Below, in pieces: positions 9,956 to 20,999 of a DNA stretch of 64,000 nucleotides (position 1 is its first letter; each line of letters opens with the position of its first letter). The stretch comes from an uncultured Trueperaceae bacterium (lineage in GTDB: Bacteria > Deinococcota > Deinococci > Deinococcales > Trueperaceae). The stretch covers positions 32,001 to 96,000 of the forward strand of contig CAWCXJ010000005.1 in the NCBI GenBank assembly GCA_963799485.1, given 5' to 3'. The translations under genes and the position numbers were made by a program. A model generated the notes under the pieces. That model was not told where the DNA came from. It did not search any database and saw only the letters and a list, made by a program, of their open reading frames with translations.

Positions 9956-10394
9956 CACGACCGGTGGCAAACCGCCCCATCACAACGGCGTGTTTTACAT
10001 GGTCTACACCTTCGCCGAACGGCTCCGGGCTTTGGACGCTGAAACCGGCAAAGTCTCGTCTTTTGCCGAAGAACCTGCCTACAACAAGACGGGTACTATC
10101 CGCCAACGGTCAAATTCTCGTCTGGGGTGACGACTTGACAGCCTGTAAACCTGTTCGCCGGCAGTTTTCGGCAAGGCTCGGTGTTGTTCGGCTGTACCTT
10201 GCCGATTTCGAAGGTTACAAAGCGGCGAGAACGGTACAGCGCCGTAAAAACAGTTGGGTGTACCTGAAAAGGTAGAGCCGGGTCGAGGCCCGGAGCTCGT
10301 CTCGGCTTGTGCTTTTACGCCTCATGAAAAAGCAGAGGTTTACGGAAACCGCACAAGCGGGTGCTTTCAAACTTCCGGTGAGCTACACTGTCGC

Positions 10395-11408
10395 GTGGCT
10401 AAGCCGACCCCTAAAGTGACGATGGCGGACGTGGCGCGCGCGGCGGGCGTCTCGAAACAGACGGTCTCGCGGGTTCTAAACGGCACCGGCTATACGAGCG
10501 CAGCGACCACCGCCCGCATCGAACGGCTGATCCGTGAACTTGGCTATCGCCGCAGCGGGGTGGCGCGGAGTCTGGCGACGAACTCGAGCCTGACTTTGGG
10601 CCTGGTCGTTCCGGCGCTCGACAACCCTTACTACGCCGAAATCGCGCAGGGTGCGGAGTGGGCGGCGTGGGCAGGCGGCTACAACCTGTTTTTAAGCAAC
10701 GCGTTTCACGACGCGGCGCGGGAAAGGGCGGCGCTCGAGTCGCTGCAAGACCGGGGCGCGGACGGCGTGATTGTAGATACCCCGAGTTTGCCGGACGACC
10801 CGCTTTTTGGGCTCTTGGCGGGGTTCAAGGCGGCGGTCGTTATCGGGCGGACGGTGCCGCCGGAGGTCGCCGGGAGCATCACCGTAGACGACGCGGCGGG
10901 TGTCCGGCTGGCGGTGCGGCGGCTGGCGGCGGCGGGGCGGACAAGGCTGGCATTTCTGGCGGGGCCGGAGCGGTTTGGTAGCAGCCGGGTACGCCGGGAA
11001 GCGTTTATCGAGGCGGAAACGGTGCGCGGGACGTTCTCCGGTACAAGGGTTTTGCAGGCGGACTCGAGCGCCGAAGCTAGTTATGAGCTCATCACCCGGC
11101 TGGCAGACAAGGGCCTCTTGTTCGACGCGCTCGTCTGCTTTAACGACGTGATGGCAGCAGGGGTACTCCGGGCCCTTGTCGACGTTGGGGTACGGGTGCC
11201 GGACGACGTCGCCGTAGTCGGACACGATGATATTCCGATGGCGGCGTGGCTACAGCCGCCTCTAAGCACGCTCCACATCGCCAAACGCGAACTTGGTTTG
11301 AGCGCGGTGAAGACGCTGCTCGAGCGCCTCAACCTCCAAAACCGCGAACCGACCGTACTAAAGCCCGAGCTTAGCTTGCGGGGCAGCACCGGCCCTTTAC
11401 CGGATTAA
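10395..11408 (+). CDS. LacI family transcriptional regulator
   Basis: HTH TMADVARAAGVSKQTVSRVLN; sugar-binding domain NPYYAEI, FNDVMAAG, VPDDVAVVGHDD. Leaderless TACACT-5nt-GTG. Confidence 0.93.
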   Translation: MAKPTPKVTMADVARAAGVSKQTVSRVLNGTGYTSAATTARIERLIRELGYRRSGVARSLATNSSLTLGLVVPALDNPYYAEIAQGAEWAAWAGGYNLFLSNAFHDAARERAALESLQDRGADGVIVDTPSLPDDPLFGLLAGFKAAVVIGRTVPPEVAGSITVDDAAGVRLAVRRLAAAGRTRLAFLAGPERFGSSRVRREAFIEAETVRGTFSGTRVLQADSSAEASYELITRLADKGLLFDALVCFNDVMAAGVLRALVDVGVRVPDDVAVVGHDDIPMAAWLQPPLSTLHIAKRELGLSAVKTLLERLNLQNREPTVLKPELSLRGSTGPLPD

Positions 11409-11442
11409 AGCTGCGCAAACAGCGGCGGTGCTAGAGTAGAGC

Positions 11443-11715
11443 ATGTTTTTTCGTCGAAACCCCAACTTCAAGCAAGAGGGCAGTTTCTTGCTGGCCCGCG
11501 TCCGCACCGACAAACACGGCGAGATAATCCCCGTGCGGCTCTCGAAAACCAGCGAGATGAGTTTGCAGGGCAGCGGCTACTTCGTTCGGAAAACCTTGGT
11601 CGGTTCAAACAGCCTCGACCAGGCGGTTTTAGAGGTTTCACTCAGTCGGGGCCACCGCGTCAAAAATGCGACCGTCGACGGCGGCGAGCTGATTCCCGTA
11701 AAAGAGTGGGAGTAG
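11443..11715 (+). CDS. Small hypothetical protein (90 aa)
   Basis: Clean ORF with TAGAGT -10 five nt before the ATG; no motif recognised. Confidence 0.7.
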   Translation: MFFRRNPNFKQEGSFLLARVRTDKHGEIIPVRLSKTSEMSLQGSGYFVRKTLVGSNSLDQAVLEVSLSRGHRVKNATVDGGELIPVKEWE

Positions 11716-11915
11716 CTTAAAGTAGCCCAGCAATACAGCTCAGCAAACAGGATGTCGTTTGTACCGGTAAGCTGGTCGGTTTGCTGGATTTTGGCCTCGA
11801 GCCTGACCGAGTAGCGTTTTGGGTTGGTGGCACGTCCTTCGCGCCCCCCGTAAAATCTACAATGGTTTTGAAAGAAGTTGACTTTGAACAAACACGCTTT
11901 TGAAAGCCGGTGCAA

Positions 11916-12818
11916 ATGCAGCTGAGCGCAGCGGAAACAGCCGCGCGCCTCCCATACCCGGAACTGGCGGACGCCATCGCCACGGTGCTTCTCAAGCGTC
12001 ACGAAACGACCGCGCCGGAGCGCAGCACGCTGGCGTTGGGGTGTGGCAGTCTGCTGCTGATGCCCGCCGCAAGCCGTGAGCTGACCATCACCAAACTCGT
12101 CACCGTTCACCCGGACAACCCGGGGCGGGGTCATCCAACCGTTCAGGGCGAGGTCGTTGTGATGCGTACCGGCACCGGGGTTCGGTTGGGTATTTTAGAC
12201 GGCGTGGTTACCGAACGGCGCACGGCGGCGCTTTCACTGCTCGCAGCCAAAACGCTCGCGCCGCGTCCTGAAGGCCCGCTACTTATTTTCGGGGCCGGGG
12301 TTCAGGCGCGGGCACATTTAGAGGCGTTTCGCGTCGGTCTGGGTGTCGAACAAGTATTTATCGCCTCAAGGACGCGGGAGAAAGCCGCCGACCTCGTAAC
12401 TTTCGCGCGTTCTCTCGGGATGGACGCACATTTTACCGAAAACCCTACCAAAATTTCAGCCGACGCCTCTCTTATCGTCACCGCCACGACGAGCCGGACG
12501 CCCGTCGTGAGCGGCCCCGTCAGGCGTGACGCGTTCATCTGCGCGGTCGGGTCGTTTCAACCCGAAACCGCCGAGGTTTCAGCCGACCTTATCGGCAAAA
12601 GCCGAGTGGTCGTCGATACCTTGGAGGCTGCCCAAACCGAAGCGGGCGACCTGATTCAGGCTGTGGCGGCAGGTCGTTTGCGCTGGTCTGAGGTCGTGGG
12701 GCTCGAGACTCTCCTGACCAACGCTACCCAAGTAGACCAGCCGACCGTATTCAAGAGCGTCGGTCACGCGCTCTTCGACCTTGCGGCGGCGCATGTAGCA
12801 TTTGGCGTTTCTATCTAG
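11916..12818 (+). CDS. Ornithine cyclodeaminase/mu-crystallin family (probable delta1-pyrroline-2-carboxylate reductase)
   Basis: LLMPA, KLVTVHPDN, TERRTAALS, FGAGVQARAH, TATTS, EAGDL, VFKSVGHALFDLAAA. Confidence 0.85.
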   Translation: MQLSAAETAARLPYPELADAIATVLLKRHETTAPERSTLALGCGSLLLMPAASRELTITKLVTVHPDNPGRGHPTVQGEVVVMRTGTGVRLGILDGVVTERRTAALSLLAAKTLAPRPEGPLLIFGAGVQARAHLEAFRVGLGVEQVFIASRTREKAADLVTFARSLGMDAHFTENPTKISADASLIVTATTSRTPVVSGPVRRDAFICAVGSFQPETAEVSADLIGKSRVVVDTLEAAQTEAGDLIQAVAAGRLRWSEVVGLETLLTNATQVDQPTVFKSVGHALFDLAAAHVAFGVSI

Positions 12819-12905
12819 AACAGCTATACCTAGAACAGCTATACTGAACACCTCGCTTTACGGCTACGCAGCGTAATGTAATAACGAACTCAGGAAGGGG
12901 CACAC

Positions 12906-13763
12906 ATGATTCCGACGCACGTTTTTGGTCGTACCGGACACGAGAGCAGCCGCACGATTTTCGGGGCTGCCGCGCTAAGCCGGGTCAGCCAAGCTGAAGC
13001 CGACCAAACGATGGAACTTTTTCTCGAGTACGGCCTCAACCATATCGACGTTGCGGCCAGTTACGGTGACGCCGAGCTGCGGTTGGCCCCGTGGCTGGGG
13101 CAGCACCGTAAAGATGTCTTTCTCGCGACCAAAACGGGTGAACGGACGTACAAGGCGGCGTATGAGCAAATCAGGCGTTCGCTCGAGCGCCTGAACGTCG
13201 AGCAAATCGACCTGATTCAGCTTCACAACCTCGTCGACCTCAGCGAGTGGGAAACGGCGCTCGGCCCCGGGGGGGCGCTGGCGGCGTGTGTAGCAGCCCG
13301 CGACGAAGGGCTGGTGCGTTTTATCGGCGTGACGGGGCACGGGCTCGAGGTCGCCGCGCGGCACAAGGCGAGCCTGGAGCGCTTCGATTTCGATTCGGTA
13401 CTCCTGCCTTACAGCTACGTTCTAATGCAAAACCCGCAGTACGCCGACGACTTTGAAGCTTTGGTCGCGTTATGCGAAAAACGGAACGTCGCGGTGCAGA
13501 CCATCAAGGCCGTGACCCGCGCACCGTGGGGCGACAGGTCGCAAACACGCGCGACCTGGTACGAACCGCTAGAAGAGCAAGCCGACATCGATACCACCGT
13601 TCACTGGGTTCTCGGAAGAGACGGATTTTTCCTCAACACGGTAGGTGATATTCACCTCTTGCCGAAAGTACTGGACGCTGCGAGCCGTTTCGACACGCGG
13701 CCCAGCGACGCCCGGATGCAGGCGGTGGTAGAAAAGCAGCAGATGTCGCCGCTTTTTACCTGA
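12906..13763 (+). CDS. Aldo/keto reductase-fold protein, directly upstream of larEBC
   Basis: [23 protein letters not shown]...[18 protein letters not shown]. The D/Y/K/H tetrad is present. Confidence 0.88.
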
Positions 13764-13820
13764 GCCGCGCTGTTTGTTCACCCTTTGTGATAGATAATCA
13801 GGACTCGAGGATACGACTGA

Positions 13821-14621
13821 GTGAAAGAGACTGCAGATTTAACCCCCTTTCAGGCGTGGTTCGCCGACTGCCCCGGCGCGCTCGTGGCGTTTTCGGGTGG
13901 CGTGGACAGTTCGCTGGTGGCTTTTCTGGCGCGGACGCTGCTCGGCCCGGAACGCGTCGTCGCGGTGATTTCAGCCTCACCCAGCCTGAAGCTGAGCGAC
14001 CTCGACGCTGCCAAAACCTTTTGCCTGAGCCACAACGTCCCGCTCCGGGTGATTCGCACCGCCGAACTCTCTAACCCCGACTACTACACCAACCCGGCGA
14101 ACCGCTGTTACTTTTGCAAACACACGCTCTACCGCGACCTGGACGCCTACGAAGAATTTGCAGGCTGGTGGATTTTGAACGGCACCAACCACGACGACCT
14201 GGGCGATTACCGCCCCGGTATTCAGGCCGGGAGTGAGTTCCAGGTACGCAGTCCGCTTGCCGAATGCGGGTTTGGGAAACCGGCGGTTCGGGCTTTGGCC
14301 GCCGCGCTGGGTCTCGAGTGCTGGGACAAACCCGCCAGCCCCTGCCTCAGCTCGCGCATCCCCTACGGTCAGCGCGTCACCGAACAAAAATTGCGGCAGA
14401 TCGAGGCCGGTGAACAGTTCTTAAACGAGCTGGGATTCCCGGTCGCGCGCGTTCGACATAACGACGGTCGGGCTGTCGTCGAGGTACCGGGGGAGCGGTT
14501 GGCTGACCTTGGGCGCGTCGCTGATACTGTCAGCGCACAGCTGCTGGAACTCGGGTTTCAGGCTGTAGAAATTGACCGGGAAGGTTTCGTGTCCGGTAAA
14601 CTCAACCGCGCGCTGTTGTGA
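13821..14621 (+). CDS. larE: ATP-dependent sulfur insertase LarE (nickel-pincer cofactor biosynthesis)
   Basis: PP-loop AFSGGVDS, NRCYFCK, GTNHDDLGDYRPG, WDKPASPCLSSRIPYG, GFVSGKLN. Confidence 0.93.
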   Translation: MKETADLTPFQAWFADCPGALVAFSGGVDSSLVAFLARTLLGPERVVAVISASPSLKLSDLDAAKTFCLSHNVPLRVIRTAELSNPDYYTNPANRCYFCKHTLYRDLDAYEEFAGWWILNGTNHDDLGDYRPGIQAGSEFQVRSPLAECGFGKPAVRALAAALGLECWDKPASPCLSSRIPYGQRVTEQKLRQIEAGEQFLNELGFPVARVRHNDGRAVVEVPGERLADLGRVADTVSAQLLELGFQAVEIDREGFVSGKLNRALL

Positions 14622-15343
14622 GCGGTGCCGACAGGGACCCAAGCAACGCGCTTGACGAAGGGACGAACACAGACAACTGCGGCACAGATAGCAGCGATGT
14701 CACCCTCGACGTAACCCGCGAAGTACGGCTCGGGTTTCCCGAAGTCGTCTACGGACAGCATAAATCGCCCGCGCAGCTGAAGCGCATTTTAGCGGCGCAG
14801 CTCGAGGGCCAAAAAAACGTCCTCATCACCCGGCTCCAACCTGAAAAAGTGCCGCCGCTGCTCGAGGCCGCGCCCAACGCGCACTATCACGACGACGCGC
14901 GCACGCTAAGCGTGGTCTTTAGTCCGCCCACAGCACGACCGGGAAAAGTCGGTATCGTCTGCGCCGGAACCTCGGATATGCCGGTCGTGCGCGAAGTCGA
15001 AACCACGCTGGCGTTTTTAGGCGTCGCTACGGAAAGTTACAAAGATGTCGGGGTGGCGGGTATCGGGCGGCTGTTTAACGTCTTGCCGCAGCTTAGGGAA
15101 TGTGACGTCATCGTCTGCGCGGCAGGCTTTGAAGGGGCGCTCGCCTCGGTATTGGGCGGATTGTTGCCGCAACCCCTGATCGCCGTGCCGACCAGCGTCG
15201 GGTACGGCGTCGCAGAAGGTGGTCACACGGCTCTCAACGCGATGCTCGCCAGCTGCGCCAACGGCATTACGGTCGTCAATATCGACAACGGTTACGGCGC
15301 GGCCCTCGCCGCGTTCAGAATTTTGCAAAGGATGTTCAGGTGA
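14618..15343 (+). CDS. larB: NaAD carboxylase/hydrolase LarB
   Basis: RLGFPEVVYG, AGTSDMPV, DVGVAG, AGFEGAL, IAVPTSVGYG, MLASCANGITVVNIDNGYGAA. Confidence 0.94.
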   Translation: MSGADRDPSNALDEGTNTDNCGTDSSDVTLDVTREVRLGFPEVVYGQHKSPAQLKRILAAQLEGQKNVLITRLQPEKVPPLLEAAPNAHYHDDARTLSVVFSPPTARPGKVGIVCAGTSDMPVVREVETTLAFLGVATESYKDVGVAGIGRLFNVLPQLRECDVIVCAAGFEGALASVLGGLLPQPLIAVPTSVGYGVAEGGHTALNAMLASCANGITVVNIDNGYGAALAAFRILQRMFR

Positions 15344-16542
15344 CCGACACGCACATGAAAAACAAACAAACCGTGCTCAAAATCGAACCCTTTTCGGGCC
15401 TCAGCGGGGACATGTTTCTGGGTGCCCTGGTCGAGCTTACGGGCGGCGCGGACAAGTTGCGCGCGCTGCCCGAACAGCTCAACTTGCCCGAAGCCGAAAT
15501 CGACGTCGCGCGCGTCTCGAAGTGCAGCATCGATTGTCTCAAGGTCACCGTAAAAGACCGCTCGCCGGAGGCTGAGCGACCGCACCGGCACCTTAAAGAT
15601 ATCCACAACCTTCTCGACGCCTCGAGCTTAACTAACCGGGTGAAAGCGAGAACCAAAGACATCTTTCAGCTTTTAGCGGAGGCCGAAGCCGCCGTTCACG
15701 GGGTCGGCCTCGAGCGGGTGCATTTTCACGAAGTGGGGGCGGTCGATTCGGTGGTCGATATTACCGGCGTGGCGCTGCTGCTCGGCGACCTTACGTTTAC
15801 GCACGTCTACTGCGACCCCATCTGTACGGGTTACGGGTTTGTCAAAACCGACCACGGCAGGCTGCCCGTCCCGGCCCCTGCCACGCAGAGACTCCTTCAC
15901 GGCATGCCGACCTACAAAGGCCGAACCGCCTCGGAGCTGATTACGCCTACCGGCGCGGCTATCTTACGGTTTCTGAAACCCGACTTCAGCGACCCTGTTT
16001 TGTCGTTGCAGCGGAGTGCCTACGGTGCAGGTTCTAAAGACTTCGAGCACCCCAACTGCGTGCGAATCAGTATGGGCGAAACGGGGGAGACCGGGCCAAA
16101 CGACGCGCCTGACGCGACCCACACCCTGATTCAAACGAACATCGACGACATGCCCGCCGAACAGCTCGGCGCGGATTTTCAGAGGCTCCTGCTTGAAAGC
16201 GGCGCACTCGACGTTTACCTGACCCCTACGCTGATGAAAAAGTCTCGTCCAGGGCTGAAACTCGAGGTACTTTGCCGCCAAGCCGACGCCGAGCGCCTCG
16301 CCGAGCTGGTGCTCGAGTACACCACGACGCTGGGGGTACGGTTTCTGCCCTGCCGCCGTAAAGAACTGGCGCGTACCGTAACCCCGGTCACGACGCCGTT
16401 CGGTGAAATCAGTGTCAAAACCGCCACCTTGCCGTCGGGCAAGCTCCGGCACAAACCGGAATACGAGGCGTGTCAGGCTGCCGCACGAAAACACCGGGTC
16501 GCGGCGTCTGAAGTGGTGCTCGAGACCTTGAAGTGCCTGTGA
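15340..16542 (+). CDS. larC: Nickel insertase LarC
   Basis: GLSGDMFLGAL, HRHLxDI, AEAAVHG...VHFHEVGAVDS, HGRLPVPAPAT, ELITPTGAA, TNIDD, MKKSRPG, KPEYE. A single uninterrupted ORF. Confidence 0.94.
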   Translation: MTDTHMKNKQTVLKIEPFSGLSGDMFLGALVELTGGADKLRALPEQLNLPEAEIDVARVSKCSIDCLKVTVKDRSPEAERPHRHLKDIHNLLDASSLTNRVKARTKDIFQLLAEAEAAVHGVGLERVHFHEVGAVDSVVDITGVALLLGDLTFTHVYCDPICTGYGFVKTDHGRLPVPAPATQRLLHGMPTYKGRTASELITPTGAAILRFLKPDFSDPVLSLQRSAYGAGSKDFEHPNCVRISMGETGETGPNDAPDATHTLIQTNIDDMPAEQLGADFQRLLLESGALDVYLTPTLMKKSRPGLKLEVLCRQADAERLAELVLEYTTTLGVRFLPCRRKELARTVTPVTTPFGEISVKTATLPSGKLRHKPEYEACQAAARKHRVAASEVVLETLKCL

Positions 16543-16761
16543 AGTGCCTGTAAAAATGGCTGTCGCCATCAAGTTGTCGCGTGCAGCACCACGGTGAAAA
16601 ACAGGGGTCAAGGCAACGGTAGCGGCGACGCGCGACGCATCGGCGTTTAGGAGCGGACCGTTGATGTGGCACTAGCGGATAGTGAAGACGCGCGCAGGCA
16701 CAGCGTTGCAAAGTGATTTTCTGTAACGGTCGGCGTTTTGGTGGTTGAGCCGGTGTCCGAA

Positions 16762-17769
16762 CTATCTGAGAAAAAACCCCGCCCCTACCGGGTCGTCCGG
16801 GTCGATAACCCACTGATTGAAGCCGGTGATGGCTGCGCTGCCACTCACTTCCGGAATTACGGCGTCAAACGCACCGACTTTGGTGTGTCCGACCACGCGT
16901 CCCGTAAAAATCGTGCCGATGATGCTCTCGTTGACGAGCACCTCATTTTCTTTAAGCTGGCCCCTGGCGTAAAGCTGCGCGACCCGTCCGGCGGTACCGG
17001 TTCCGGTCGGTGAGCGGTCTACTTCGCGGTCGGCGAAGATGCAGACGTTCGCCTGCGTTGAGTCCCGGTTTTGCGGCGGCCCAGCTATGATGGTGCCGTA
17101 AAGCGCTCTGAGTTCGGGGACGAGCGGATGCTGAATTGTGGCCTCGGCGCTCACGGCTTTTTTAACCTCGTCACCCAAAACGGTGAGCAGGCGGTAGTTT
17201 TCGGGGCCGACGGCAAGCCCGACCTGCGCGCCGTCCAGATACGCGTAAAACGCGCCGCCGAAAGCGATATCGACCGTCACCGGACCGAACGAAGGTGTGT
17301 GAACCGTCAAATCTTGCTTATAAAGAAATGAGGGAACGTTGTTAAACCGCACCCGACCGACTTTAAGACCGTCCCACGCGGCAAACGCCTCGATAAACCC
17401 GGCAGGCGAATCGATCCCGATGCGGGTTTCCGGTTCGTTGACCTTAACCAAGCCCTGCGCGACGGCGACTGTGGCAAGCGCGATGACGCCGTGCCCGCAC
17501 ATATCCGAGTAGCCTTCGTTGTGCATAAAGATGACGCCTAGGTCGGCTGCTTGTGTAACCGGCTCGGTAAGGTAAGCGCCGTACATGTCGGCGTGGCCCC
17601 TGGGCTCCCACATCAGCGCCTTACGCACGTCGTCCAGGTTTTCGTTGACCCAGCGGCGTTTTTCCAGAACTGTGTGACCGGGGATTCGCGGAATACCGGC
17701 GGTAACGATGCGGAGCGGTTCGCCTGCGGTGTGAGTATCGACGGTGGTGTAGGTGCGGCTGAAGTTCAT
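16762..17769 (-). CDS. Proline racemase superfamily, Cys/Thr type (probable trans-3-hydroxy-L-proline dehydratase)
   Basis: DTHTAGEPLR, EPRGHADMYG, MCGHG (Cys) and DRSPTGTG (Thr in place of the second Cys). RBS GGAGG. Confidence 0.85.
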   Translation of the reverse strand: MNFSRTYTTVDTHTAGEPLRIVTAGIPRIPGHTVLEKRRWVNENLDDVRKALMWEPRGHADMYGAYLTEPVTQAADLGVIFMHNEGYSDMCGHGVIALATVAVAQGLVKVNEPETRIGIDSPAGFIEAFAAWDGLKVGRVRFNNVPSFLYKQDLTVHTPSFGPVTVDIAFGGAFYAYLDGAQVGLAVGPENYRLLTVLGDEVKKAVSAEATIQHPLVPELRALYGTIIAGPPQNRDSTQANVCIFADREVDRSPTGTGTAGRVAQLYARGQLKENEVLVNESIIGTIFTGRVVGHTKVGAFDAVIPEVSGSAAITGFNQWVIDPDDPVGAGFFLR

Positions 17770-17813
17770 CTCTTGCCTCCGGTTACGCTGGGCCAAATAG
17801 TATATACTGACCT

Positions 17814-17905
17814 TCTCACCAGGGGTGCCGAAAGGCTGAGAGAGCCCGCGTTATGCGGCTCAACCCTAGAACCTGAACCGGGTCATACCGGCGGAGGAAG
17901 TGTGA
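17814..17905 (+). ncRNA. TPP (THI-box) riboswitch
   Basis: AGGGGTGCC...GGCTGAGA...ACCCTAGAACCTGAACCGGGTCATACCGGCGGAGGAA, upstream of thiamine-salvage genes. Confidence 0.93.
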
Positions 17906-17926
17906 CGCGCACTCAGCCTAATTGCG

Positions 17927-17956
17927 CCTCCTGGTGAAGTTACTGGGAGGTTTTTT
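17927..17956 (+). terminator. Riboswitch expression platform: hairpin plus T-tract sequestering the RBS
   Basis: CCTCCTGGT-gaagtt-ACTGGGAGG-TTTTTT immediately before the ATG at 17958. Confidence 0.7.
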
Positions 17957-17957
17957 A

Positions 17958-18638
17958 ATGTCTGTAAACACAGCTTACGGCGAGGGTGTCGGCACAGGGT
18001 TTTTAGCCGGGTTGAGCACTCAAGACCTGCGCCCGAAACAAGAACTGCTCCTCAACCATCCGCTCTGGAAGGGTATTCAAACGCAAACGACGACCCGTGA
18101 ACAGCTCGCCCGGTTTGCCCTGCAAGATATCTTTTTAATCCGTGAGGTGTACCGTTTGGACAGCCTCGCCATCGCCAAGGCGCCCACAGCTGAAGCGGCA
18201 GACGCGCTGATTGCCAAGCTGACGCCCAAGTCGGGTGCAGCCGACACGCTTTTACGGTTTGGTGAGGCGGTCGGCTTGACGCCGGAAGACTTTGACGCCG
18301 TAAAACCCCTTGCGCCCTGTCTCGCCCTTACGGCGCAGTTTTACTACCATCTGGCGCGGAGTTCGTTTGCCGAGACCGTAGCGTGTATCGGCGCGAGTGA
18401 AACGATATTTCTAGAAATCTGCGGGCGCATCGACGCTCCGCTCCGGCAGTACGGCTTTTCGGACGAGGCCGTAGCGTTCTTCAGGTTTCATGAAGCCTTG
18501 GAGCCTGCCGAACGCGCCACCACCGAGATGCTCCGCCCATTTGTGACGACCGACGCGGAGAAAGAGGCCGTCACTAGGGCCGCCGAAGTGTGCTACGACT
18601 TTGAACGGCTGTTTTACGACGCGGTGCTGACCGGGTGA
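17958..18638 (+). CDS. TenA/PqqC heme-oxygenase-fold protein (TenA_E-like, thiamine salvage)
   Basis: LLNHPLW, FALQD, GASETIF, FERLFYD; controlled by the TPP riboswitch. Confidence 0.7.
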   Translation: MSVNTAYGEGVGTGFLAGLSTQDLRPKQELLLNHPLWKGIQTQTTTREQLARFALQDIFLIREVYRLDSLAIAKAPTAEAADALIAKLTPKSGAADTLLRFGEAVGLTPEDFDAVKPLAPCLALTAQFYYHLARSSFAETVACIGASETIFLEICGRIDAPLRQYGFSDEAVAFFRFHEALEPAERATTEMLRPFVTTDAEKEAVTRAAEVCYDFERLFYDAVLTG

Positions 18639-19381
18639 AGTTCAGGAGCGTCCTGGCACCGCTCGTTGCGGGTGCTCTGATTCTGGGCGTGTGGCAGCTC
18701 GGCGTAGCACTGAGCGACGTTCCCGCGAGTTTTTTGCCGTCGCCGTCGGCTGTTTTTGCGACGCTGCTGGGGCAACGCGGCCTGCTGTGGCGTAACAGCC
18801 TGACCACGCTCTCCGAAACGGCGCTGGGGGTCGTTCTTGCCGTGGTTGCGGCGCTTGTCTGGGCGCTGCTGCTCGACCGCTTCGAGCTTTTACGGCGGGC
18901 GTTACTGCCCTTTCTCGTCGCCTCGCAAACCGTGCCGATTATCGTCTTGGCCCCGCTGATGCTCCTCTGGTTCGGGTTTGGACTTTTGCCCAAAGTGCTG
19001 CTCGTCGCGCTCTTCGCCTTTTTTCCTATCGTCCTCTCGACGCTTTCGGGTCTCGCAGAGACGCCGCCTGAACGTGTTGACCTGATGCGTTCGCTTGCGG
19101 CGTCGCCGTGGCAGACCTTTTGCCTCTTGCGTTGGCCCGGCGCGCTGCCGAGTTTTTTCTCGGGTCTGCGGATTACGCTGACCTACAGCGTCACCGGCGC
19201 CATCTTTGCCGAATATGTCGGGGGCTTTTCGGGTCTCGGGATTTTGCTGCAAACTGCCGCCAACTCACGTGCTACCCCTTTGGTCTTCGCTACCATCGTC
19301 GTCATCGCCCTCTTAAGCTCGCTGCTCGTCGCCGGAGTGCGGCTCTTAGAGCGTCTCACCATGCCCTGGAGGTTTCAGTGA
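18635..19381 (+). CDS. ABC transporter permease (ThiX/SsuC-like)
   Basis: FLPSPSAV, SQTVPIIVLAPL, FFPI, ALPSFFSGLR, GAIFAEY...GLG. Confidence 0.9.
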   Translation: MKFRSVLAPLVAGALILGVWQLGVALSDVPASFLPSPSAVFATLLGQRGLLWRNSLTTLSETALGVVLAVVAALVWALLLDRFELLRRALLPFLVASQTVPIIVLAPLMLLWFGFGLLPKVLLVALFAFFPIVLSTLSGLAETPPERVDLMRSLAASPWQTFCLLRWPGALPSFFSGLRITLTYSVTGAIFAEYVGGFSGLGILLQTAANSRATPLVFATIVVIALLSSLLVAGVRLLERLTMPWRFQ

Positions 19382-20352
19382 AAGTTCTTTTTACGTTTTT
19401 TGCCATCGTTTTTACCTCAGCTTCAGCCCAAACCCAGACCGTTCGCCTGGCCCTCGACTGGGTACCGAACACGAACCACACCGGGATTTACGTCGCGCTC
19501 GCCAAGGGCTGGTACGAAGAAGCCGGTGTGAACCTGCAAGTTTTGCCGTATGGCAGCGTGTCGCCTGAAGCGCTCGTAGCCAACGGTCAGGCCGAAGTTG
19601 CAGTTTCAGGTAGCGAAGGGGTGCTGACCTCGGTCGTTACCGAGGAACCGATTGTCTCGGTAGCGGCGATGCTGTCAACGAACACTGCGGCGCTGGCGGT
19701 GCTCAAAACGAGTGGTATCACCCGCCCGCGCGAACTCGACGGCAAAATCTACGCCGCCTACGGGGGCAACTACGAGGACGCGGTGGTCGGGGCCGTTATC
19801 CGGCACGACGGCGGTGAGGGAAATTTCAAGAGCGCCCTGCTGAACGTGGCAGGTTTCGACGCGCTCCTGGCGGGCCGCGCCGATTTCGTCTGGATTTTCG
19901 AGGGTTGGCAGGGTGTACAGGCCAAACGTGAAGGTATTGACCTGACGCTATTTAACTTCAACGACTACGGCATCCCCGACTACTACACGCCGGTACTGGT
20001 CAGTAGCGCCGCGACGATTGAACAAAACCCCGAAGCGCTGCGCGCATTTCTCGAGGCCACCGCTCGCGGCTACACCTTCGCCGCCGAGAACCCTGCAGAG
20101 GCAGCCGAACTCCTCATTGAAACTGCACCTGAGGGCAGCTTTCCCGACCCCGACCTGGTACGTGATTCGCAAAAACTCGTCTCGAGCTTTTATATTGCCG
20201 ACGGTGGAGCGTGGGGACAGCAGCGCCCGGAGATGTGGCGCGGCTACCAAACGATGCTTTTAGATGCCGGGGTTTACGGCGATAAAACCGCCGCCTTACG
20301 CAAGGCCGTCGAGAACGGGGCGCTCTTTACCAACGAACTGCTCCCGCAGTAG
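19378..20352 (+). CDS. NMT1/THI5-like substrate-binding protein (ThiY-like)
   Basis: Signal peptide, then LDWVPNTNHTGIYVA...GW, ELDGK, PDYYTPVL. Confidence 0.88.
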   Translation: MKVLFTFFAIVFTSASAQTQTVRLALDWVPNTNHTGIYVALAKGWYEEAGVNLQVLPYGSVSPEALVANGQAEVAVSGSEGVLTSVVTEEPIVSVAAMLSTNTAALAVLKTSGITRPRELDGKIYAAYGGNYEDAVVGAVIRHDGGEGNFKSALLNVAGFDALLAGRADFVWIFEGWQGVQAKREGIDLTLFNFNDYGIPDYYTPVLVSSAATIEQNPEALRAFLEATARGYTFAAENPAEAAELLIETAPEGSFPDPDLVRDSQKLVSSFYIADGGAWGQQRPEMWRGYQTMLLDAGVYGDKTAALRKAVENGALFTNELLPQ

Positions 20353-20433
20353 GGCGCGCGAAGCAACGAGCGGCGAAGAAAAACGCGTTGCTTGCTATCA
20401 CTTCTCTTTACCGCCTTGCTTTGGTACCGCTTT

Positions 20434-20482
20434 TTACTGTGCGCTCACCTTACTGTACGCTCCACCTTACTGTGCGCTCACC
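20434..20482. repeat. Three near-identical ~16-17 bp copies of the aroH 3' end
   Basis: TTACTGTGCGCTCACC / TTACTGTACGCTCCACC / TTACTGTGCGCTCACC. Confidence 0.85.
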
Positions 20483-20847
20483 AGGTCGGGGCGCAATTTT
20501 ACAGCCTCACGCAGATAGATATGCCGCATCTCGCGCTGCGTTTTGGTGGTATTGACCTGGAGCATCACCCGCACGGCCCGTGGCAAACGGTTCGGTACCG
20601 GAATCTCCTGATTGCACATTAAAGGCACCAGGTTCATCCCGAGTGCCCGCGCCGCCTCTGCCGGAAAGGTGCTCGTCAGGTCGGGCGTGGTGGTAAAGAA
20701 AATGGCTGCGATGGCCTCGAAATCGCGGATTTCGTTTTCGCGGAGCATGGTCGCCAAAAGCTCTTTGGTCGCCGTCAAAATCAGTTCGGGTTCGTCTTGT
20801 TCGACCGTCGTCGCGCCGCGAATACCGCGCACCCAGGTTGGTTCCAT
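20467..20847 (-). CDS. aroH: Chorismate mutase, AroH class
   Basis: RGIRGATTV, FTTTPDL..FPAEAAR, VPLMCNQEIPV, HIYLREAVKLRPDL. Leaderless TACACT-6nt-ATG. Confidence 0.93.
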   Translation of the reverse strand: MEPTWVRGIRGATTVEQDEPELILTATKELLATMLRENEIRDFEAIAAIFFTTTPDLTSTFPAEAARALGMNLVPLMCNQEIPVPNRLPRAVRVMLQVNTTKTQREMRHIYLREAVKLRPDLVSAQ

Positions 20848-20999
20848 GAGGAGAGTGTAACACTGCCCCCGGGCAAGGTCACAAAGTTCTCTCAACACCC
20901 GGTTTACGCCCGGACGTTTTACACCCGGACATTCTCGAAGGATTTTCAAGCGCTTGCTCCGTTACCGTCTTGCTGAAGGTTGTTTTATAAACTGTAAAG

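Follow-up and report, generated by a model that had tools for sequence, protein, structure and literature searches.

The closest described relative of the system reported here is NphT of Alicyclobacillus cellulosilyticus, a hydride transferase of the aldo-keto reductase (AKR) fold that depends on nickel-pincer mononucleotide (NPMN) and whose structure is PDB entry 9YEB (Semersky et al., Nat Chem 2026, PMC13524815). In that study, larC neighbourhoods without larA were mined and AKRs were found beside lar genes in 427 instances. NphT binds NPMN covalently (+450 Da) via K200, the adduct being abolished in K200A, with H144 as a nickel ligand, and its cofactor cavity is capped at the site of the AMP moiety in canonical AKRs. 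The tetrad is required (Y52 and K75 are essential, D47 and H106 important), aldoses are converted to lactone plus alditol by disproportionation with intermolecular hydride transfer, and no products were formed with NAD(P)(H). The pair formed by the tether lysine and the nickel histidine is reported absent in characterised NAD(P)H-dependent AKRs. NphT is neighboured by sugar-metabolism genes, and its physiological substrate is not established (PMC13524815). Here, we analysed a window of DNA (the whole 64-kb stretch presented above) from an uncultured bacterium of the Trueperaceae (Deinococcota), in which an AKR gene is followed by larE, larB and larC. We consider it highly probable that positions 12906-16542 form a self-contained module, i.e. 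an NPMN-using AKR together with the genes making its cofactor.

The region is filled by four co-oriented open reading frames (ORFs), as follows.

12906..13763, + strand: AKR, predicted NphT-type NPMN-dependent hydride transferase, 285 aa (PF00248 and 9YEB matches)
13821..14621, + strand: larE, sulfur insertase (ATP-dependent) with the three cysteines of the CXXC-C motif, 266 aa (TIGR00268)
14618..15343, + strand: larB, carboxylase/hydrolase acting on nicotinic acid adenine dinucleotide (NaAD), 241 aa (NF033503)
15340..16542, + strand: larC, nickel insertase (fused LarC1-LarC2), 400 aa (PF01969, TIGR00299, NF052512)

The AKR and larE genes are separated by 57 bp (13764-13820), and the larE/larB and larB/larC pairs overlap by 4 bp each; the ORF list and the family scans thereby bore out the overlapping trio with a co-oriented AKR upstream that had been proposed in a preliminary description of this DNA. 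All three lar products were assigned by family scan over the curated cut-offs: LarE with TIGR00268 (273 bits, cut-off 150), LarB with NF033503 (264.5 bits, cut-off 175) and LarC with PF01969 (415 bits) as well as both NCBIfam LarC models (TIGR00299 and NF052512), the equivalog-level scores being 200.6 bits for LarC1 (cut-off 90) and 139 for LarC2 (cut-off 50). LarE matched the L. plantarum LarE structures with an E value of 3.5e-43. It carries the P-loop SGGVDS (SGGXDS) and a CXXC-C motif made of CYFC and the C of CLSSR, whereas L. plantarum LarE lacks this CXXC. According to excerpts of PMC9283937, the SGGXDS and CXXC-C motifs mark the non-sacrificial LarE with a [4Fe-4S] cluster, and the T. 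maritima LarE works catalytically with such a cluster; the window LarE is thus assigned to the [4Fe-4S] type by its motif, the cluster being a prediction. A promoter and terminator scan returned nothing between the upstream gene and the AKR gene, nor 3' of larC, its totals lying near the shuffle level. A search of the genome for nickel importers, confined to the NicO family (PF03824), gave no match.

The AKR matched the PF00248 (Aldo_ket_red) profile with 81.5 bits (7e-23) over residues 18-202 only, corresponding to profile positions 3-191 of 291, and the C-terminal third of its sequence departs from the AKR profile. When compared with all PDB sequences, its best match was chain A of 9YEB (E value of 8.1e-76, 257.8 bits, residues 4-264), the second-best match reaching only 1e-10. 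Identity to 9YEB is about 47 %, i.e. about 122 of 261 aligned positions as counted from the midline of the printed alignment. The same printed alignment was used for residue mapping, PDB chain numbering being the paper numbering plus 3. We found a counterpart in the window AKR for every cofactor contact or catalyst of NphT named in the paper. The tether lysine K200 (TIKAI in 9YEB) aligns with K201 (TIKAV), the nickel histidine H144 (ITGHG) with H145 (VTGHG), and the tetrad D47, Y52, K75 and H106 with D48, Y53, K76 and H107. Further NPMN contacts, i.e. A20, A21, T142, I199, W218, Y219 and G248 of NphT, are represented by A21, A22, T143, I200, W218, Y219 and G247.

Conservation was assessed in an orthologue set of 80 loci, mostly from Chloroflexota and Deinococcota and 56-85 % identical to the window AKR. 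Both K201 and H145 were kept in 80 of 80 orthologues. Altogether, eleven cofactor or catalytic residues were identical in all 80, the twelfth (A21) was found in 73 and replaced by G or S in the other seven, and G247 was present in no fewer than 90 % of the sequences in an alignment of 24. An AlphaFold model of the AKR built with 24 orthologues gave a TIM barrel of alternating strands and helices (pLDDT 95.6). The top Foldseek matches were all AKRs with TM values of 0.6-0.75; the PDB copy searched (to 2026-04-08) predates 9YEB, so these matches reflect the generic fold only. As for the cavity that accommodates the AMP half in canonical AKRs, the comparison stands at the level of sequence: the match to Pfam reaches no further than profile position 191 of 291, while NphT and the window AKR can be aligned in their C-terminal regions.

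Taken with the published work, these features very probably place the window AKR among nickel-dependent enzymes of the NphT type. It bears no export signal, iron-sulfur tail or extra domain and aligns with NphT from residue 4; judging by its sequence, it belongs to the NphT family as a plain cytoplasmic form and is accompanied by cofactor genes of its own. The two proteins share the AKR fold, a length of about 290 aa, the tether lysine, the nickel histidine, the tetrad, the cofactor contacts and the lack of a signal peptide or additional domain, and both are encoded adjoining larB, larC and larE. They differ in that the window AKR is only about 47 % identical, comes from another phylum and heads a compact four-gene block without sugar genes, its activity being predicted from sequence. 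With canonical AKRs that depend on NAD(P)H, the protein has in common the TIM barrel, the D/Y/K/H tetrad and similarity in the N-terminal half (E values of 1e-10 and weaker), but it lacks their NADPH-binding C-terminal motifs and possesses the H145/K201 pair. LarA and GntE2 (PDB 5HUQ and 4NAR), the classical NPN (nickel-pincer nucleotide)-dependent 2-hydroxyacid racemases/epimerases, likewise work with this cofactor and rely on a lysine and a histidine to do so; their fold is unrelated, however, and LarA performs intramolecular racemisation or epimerisation whereas enzymes of the NphT type shuttle hydride between molecules.

The preliminary description had suggested that this AKR binds the NPN mononucleotide instead of NADPH and is the client of the lar genes, quoting the motifs IDVAASY, ATK and QLH and a C-terminal tail devoid of the NADPH-binding stretch. 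All of these motifs and the tail are present in the translation, the atypical C-terminus agrees with the end of the PF00248 match at residue 202, and the proposed cofactor use is supported by the homology to NphT and the residues kept. The mechanistic idea is very probably right, yet it was already published, for NphT, in June 2026 (PMC13524815), and an AKR-fold user of this cofactor is accordingly not new. The terms Truepera, Trueperaceae and Deinococc had no occurrence in 12 supplementary files of that paper, six further files lying outside this search.

We propose that LarB, LarE and LarC would convert NaAD into NPMN, and that the AKR would then take up this cofactor, most likely as a covalent adduct on K201 and with H145 as nickel ligand. 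The canonical tetrad (D48, Y53, K76 and H107) would provide proton transfer, and the bound cofactor would carry hydride from one carbonyl or alcohol substrate to another in a redox-neutral disproportionation or transhydrogenation, as in NphT, so that free NAD(P)H would not be needed for turnover. The same cofactor supply probably also feeds a GntE-type LarA homologue encoded on another contig (C13, see below), and it is most likely that the lineage of the window acquired the four genes in one piece. The gene identities, the conservation of residues, and the indel and recurrence of the block described next are observations; cofactor loading, the chemistry and the direction of the indel are inferred. 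The compact natural cassette could be expressed whole to give holo-enzyme.

Comparison with a genome of the same genus (G129, 99 % complete) revealed that the four genes lie in an indel. G129 is collinear with window positions 10374-20867 at 78-85 % nucleotide identity, minus 12816-16761, and its genes for pyrroline-2-carboxylate reductase and trans-3-hydroxyproline dehydratase end 14 bp apart. The corresponding features of the window are the following, both flanking genes being outside the module.

12819..16761, unstranded: four-gene block of about 3.9 kb, an indel absent from the collinear G129
11910..12818, + strand: delta1-pyrroline-2-carboxylate reductase (ornithine cyclodeaminase/mu-crystallin family), left flank (NF005603, 327 bits, cut-off 266)
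16762..17796, - strand: trans-3-hydroxy-L-proline dehydratase, right flank (NF045511, 568 bits, cut-off 540), 85 % identical in G129
12816..12844, + strand: short tandem duplication at the block's left junction, with TAGAACAGCTATAC present in two identical copies 15 bp apart and starting at the stop codon of the upstream gene

The repeated unit TAGAACAGCTATAC had two matches in the window when 0.08 were expected by chance, and 1 of 100 shuffles reached two. At the right end of the block (16531-16552), an 11-base tandem unit (AAGTGCCTGTG / AAGTGCCTGTA) was seen across the larC stop codon. Neither of the two genomes sampled from the genus possesses the AKR or larC.

When metagenomes were scanned with LarC, two contigs emerged on which these four genes are present in unchanged order.

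L097: AKR 88 %, LarE 90 %, LarB 78 % and LarC 82 % identical to the window proteins; located between a phage-integrase fragment and a DDE-transposase fragment with an HTH_21 ORF
L174: AKR 83-89 %, LarE 87 %, LarB 78 % and LarC 76 % identical; located behind a GH38 alpha-mannosidase

At the nucleotide level, homology with the window covers only 12905-16538 for L097 and 12889-15761 for L174, the AKR start and the larC stop marking its limits. The AKR copy of the latter (L174:2285-3150) is split over two overlapping frames, which denotes a frameshift or an assembly error. Given three surroundings for the block and its absence from a close relative, the enzyme and its cofactor genes appear to have been selected and moved together.

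Additional support came from three genomes of the window's family that possess larC (G082, G116 and G137). Their AKR orthologue is 65-70 % identical and the order is AKR-larC-larE-larB, while their lar proteins are only 31-47 % identical to those of the window and represent a different lar lineage; such a linkage of the AKR with other lar genes provides independent support for the AKR-lar link. The window LarC was at most 45 % identical to the LarC of 58 larC-bearing genomes, and no donor for the lar genes was identifiable from this comparison. What is new here is that AKR and larEBC behave as one block, both in this lineage and in metagenome contigs. As independent DNA from another phylum, the locus confirms the genomic partnership of lar genes with nickel-pincer enzymes of the AKR fold. 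That the AKR and the lar genes are inherited and moved as one four-gene unit is, genetically, a better argument for linking enzyme and cofactor than their mere proximity would be.

Since the lar genes may have other clients, the whole genome was searched with the Lar_N profile (PF09861). The single match was located on contig C13 and none on the contig of the window (C5), in agreement with the earlier statement that no LarA-family gene exists within the 64 kb; the premise of a larA-less cluster nevertheless fails for the genome. The C13 protein (434 aa, L003:8894-10198, - strand) scored 77 bits for a cut-off of 23.3, and its best PDB relative is 4NAR (E value of 1.4e-60), i.e. GntE2, described in excerpts of Desguin et al. 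2020 (PMC7583248) as the NPN-dependent D-gluconate/D-mannonate 2-epimerase of T. maritima. In the printed alignment, it displays H, H, K and H at the positions of H108, H174, K184 and H200 of LarA (2yjg), residues whose roles were taken from the same excerpts. Its neighbours encode UxaC, a shikimate/gluconate-kinase-like protein, a short-chain dehydrogenase, UxaE, a LacI regulator and a TRAP binding protein, a neighbourhood that fits a hexuronate route. The protein is likely a D-mannonate/D-gluconate 2-epimerase and a second cofactor client, so that the genome holds at least two candidate clients for the lar genes, this homologue and the AKR. In two Chloroflexia genomes (L030:8589-9830 and L064:8607-9290), a LarA homologue 61 % identical to the C13 protein lies directly upstream of an NphT-type AKR, which indicates that both client types can adjoin.

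The distribution of the AKR and of the lar genes was then compared across genomes. Among the 80 orthologue-bearing genomes, 59 possess larC, and a LarA-like neighbour was present at two of the loci. For 151 sampled Chloroflexota, in which holders of the AKR were defined by an E value of at most 1e-50, larC was detected in 33 of 40 holders (32 of 39 without the unpublished G166) and in 44 of 111 non-holders, i.e. an odds ratio of 7.2 (Fisher p 2.7e-6, a value not corrected for relatedness). Of the 60 genomes sampled from the window's family (G081-G140), 5 carry larC, 29 the AKR and 45 Lar_N proteins, a figure to which the unpublished G113 contributes; no larC was detected in 41 of the 45 Lar_N holders. 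Client holders negative for larC include single-contig genomes that are 96-99 % complete (G083, G100 and G103). When the window LarC was used as a second query, nothing was retrieved from five family genomes showing no larC, and the same query matched 58 of 58 larC holders. Co-occurrence at the genome level, which the preliminary description had proposed as a check, is accordingly positive though not strict, and the window's own family shows the opposite.

Several of our observations speak against a module in which AKR and cofactor genes belong together, and they are best considered with the alternative that the GntE-type LarA homologue is the sole client of the lar genes, the AKR being a neighbour of ordinary or cofactor-independent type that relies on NAD(P)H or on another compound. 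With its match to 4NAR, its conserved H/H/K/H and its uronate cluster, the C13 protein alone could account for retention of the lar genes. The lar trio was found within the fetched flanks at only 5 of the 80 orthologue loci, 21 of the 80 orthologue-bearing genomes show no larC, and in the window's family larC is lacking in 25 of 29 AKR holders. LarB and LarE did not exceed the cut-off in the four AKR holders checked (G002, G003, G004 and G013), and AKRs of larC-less genomes still keep the cofactor residues. On the other hand, the lar genes of the window adjoin the AKR and not the LarA homologue, and they travel with the AKR in three surroundings; the AKR holds every NphT cofactor residue, including the tether lysine that characterised NAD(P)H-dependent AKRs are reported to lack, and NphT itself yielded no products with NAD(P)(H) (PMC13524815). 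We therefore regard service to the LarA homologue alone as improbable. The preliminary description had named two findings that together would tell against its idea, namely a larA elsewhere in the genome and no conserved linkage between AKR and lar genes; the former was encountered and adjacency is confined to 5 of 80 loci, while the recurrence of the cassette and the co-occurrence in Chloroflexota preserve the functional link.

The history of the block can also be read in the opposite direction, as an ancestral block deleted in G129, in which case it would not be a mobile unit and the linkage would be a relic. Among the points that count against gain as a unit, no mobile-element gene (transposase or integrase) or flanking target duplication was found at the window junctions of the block, and its G+C content (60.2 %) equals that of its flanks (60.6 % and 59.4 %), leaving no compositional signal; with such unmarked junctions and equal G+C, loss in G129 is conceivable. 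With 81-85 % identity to other family members, the AKR moreover falls among the values seen for the flanking genes. The AKR and larC are nonetheless missing from both genus members sampled, larC occurs in only 5 of the 60 sampled genomes of the family, and the same block recurs in two other surroundings, once between mobile-element fragments, which makes an ancestral origin rather unlikely. Whether the block was gained or lost, the functional reading of the AKR is unaffected. A further proposal would enlarge the operon to OCD-AKR-larEBC, with the ornithine cyclodeaminase (OCD)-family gene at 11910-12818 as a second nickel-pincer client, i.e. an NPAD-dependent ornithine cyclodeaminase-like enzyme. 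This gene is on the same strand and 87 bp upstream of the AKR, and there is a precedent, an NPAD-using ornithine cyclodeaminase found via lar-gene context (Desguin 2025, as cited in PMC13524815). Its profile score, however, assigns it to the delta1-pyrroline-2-carboxylate reductases (NF005603, 327 bits, cut-off 266), its 79 %-identical orthologue in the lar-less G129 stands end to end with the trans-3-hydroxyproline dehydratase as the expected two-step pathway pair, and neither the cassette in L097 and L174 nor the lar clusters of G082 and G116 have an OCD gene beside them. Based on the reductase score, the pairing in G129 and the lack of conserved lar linkage, this candidate was rejected as extremely unlikely, the enzyme of Desguin 2025 entering the comparison through its citation in PMC13524815.

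To return to the AKR-larEBC module, the mismatch between clients and cofactor genes in the window's family raises the question of cofactor sharing or of an unrecognised biosynthetic route. Candidate explanations are uptake of the cofactor, an unrecognised route to it, or another cofactor in those lineages. We tentatively put forward, as a possibility that is less probable than not, that the nickel-pincer cofactor is vitamin-like in this family: most genomes with its clients, the NphT-type AKR with intact cofactor residues and GntE-type LarA homologues, would not produce it by the lar route and might import it or a late precursor from neighbours, or use an unrecognised route, and AKR-larEBC might then represent a portable self-sufficiency kit. 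Scavenging, salvage, uptake of or auxotrophy for the cofactor are not raised in the main text of PMC13524815.

Neighbouring genes were analysed for 63 of the 80 orthologue loci (17 were dropped, as the AKR frame was not called by the ORF picker), and no conserved neighbour emerged as a clue to the substrate. The commonest neighbours were a full-length canonical AKR (11 loci) and an ABC ATPase (7 loci), nothing else exceeding five. The canonical AKR, about 335 aa long and covering the whole Pfam profile, lies at most five genes from the NphT-type AKR (L004, L009, L015, L016, L029, L030, L042, L062, L064, L066 and L073).

On both sides of the block, the window retains a trans-3-hydroxy-L-proline pathway pair with a LacI regulator upstream (10254-12818 and 16762-17796), which is conserved and uninterrupted in G129. 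Beyond it, at 17922-20352, the genes for a TenA/PqqC-like protein, an ABC permease and an NMT1/THI5-type binding protein succeed one another; the set, also conserved in G129, may constitute a thiamine-precursor salvage unit.

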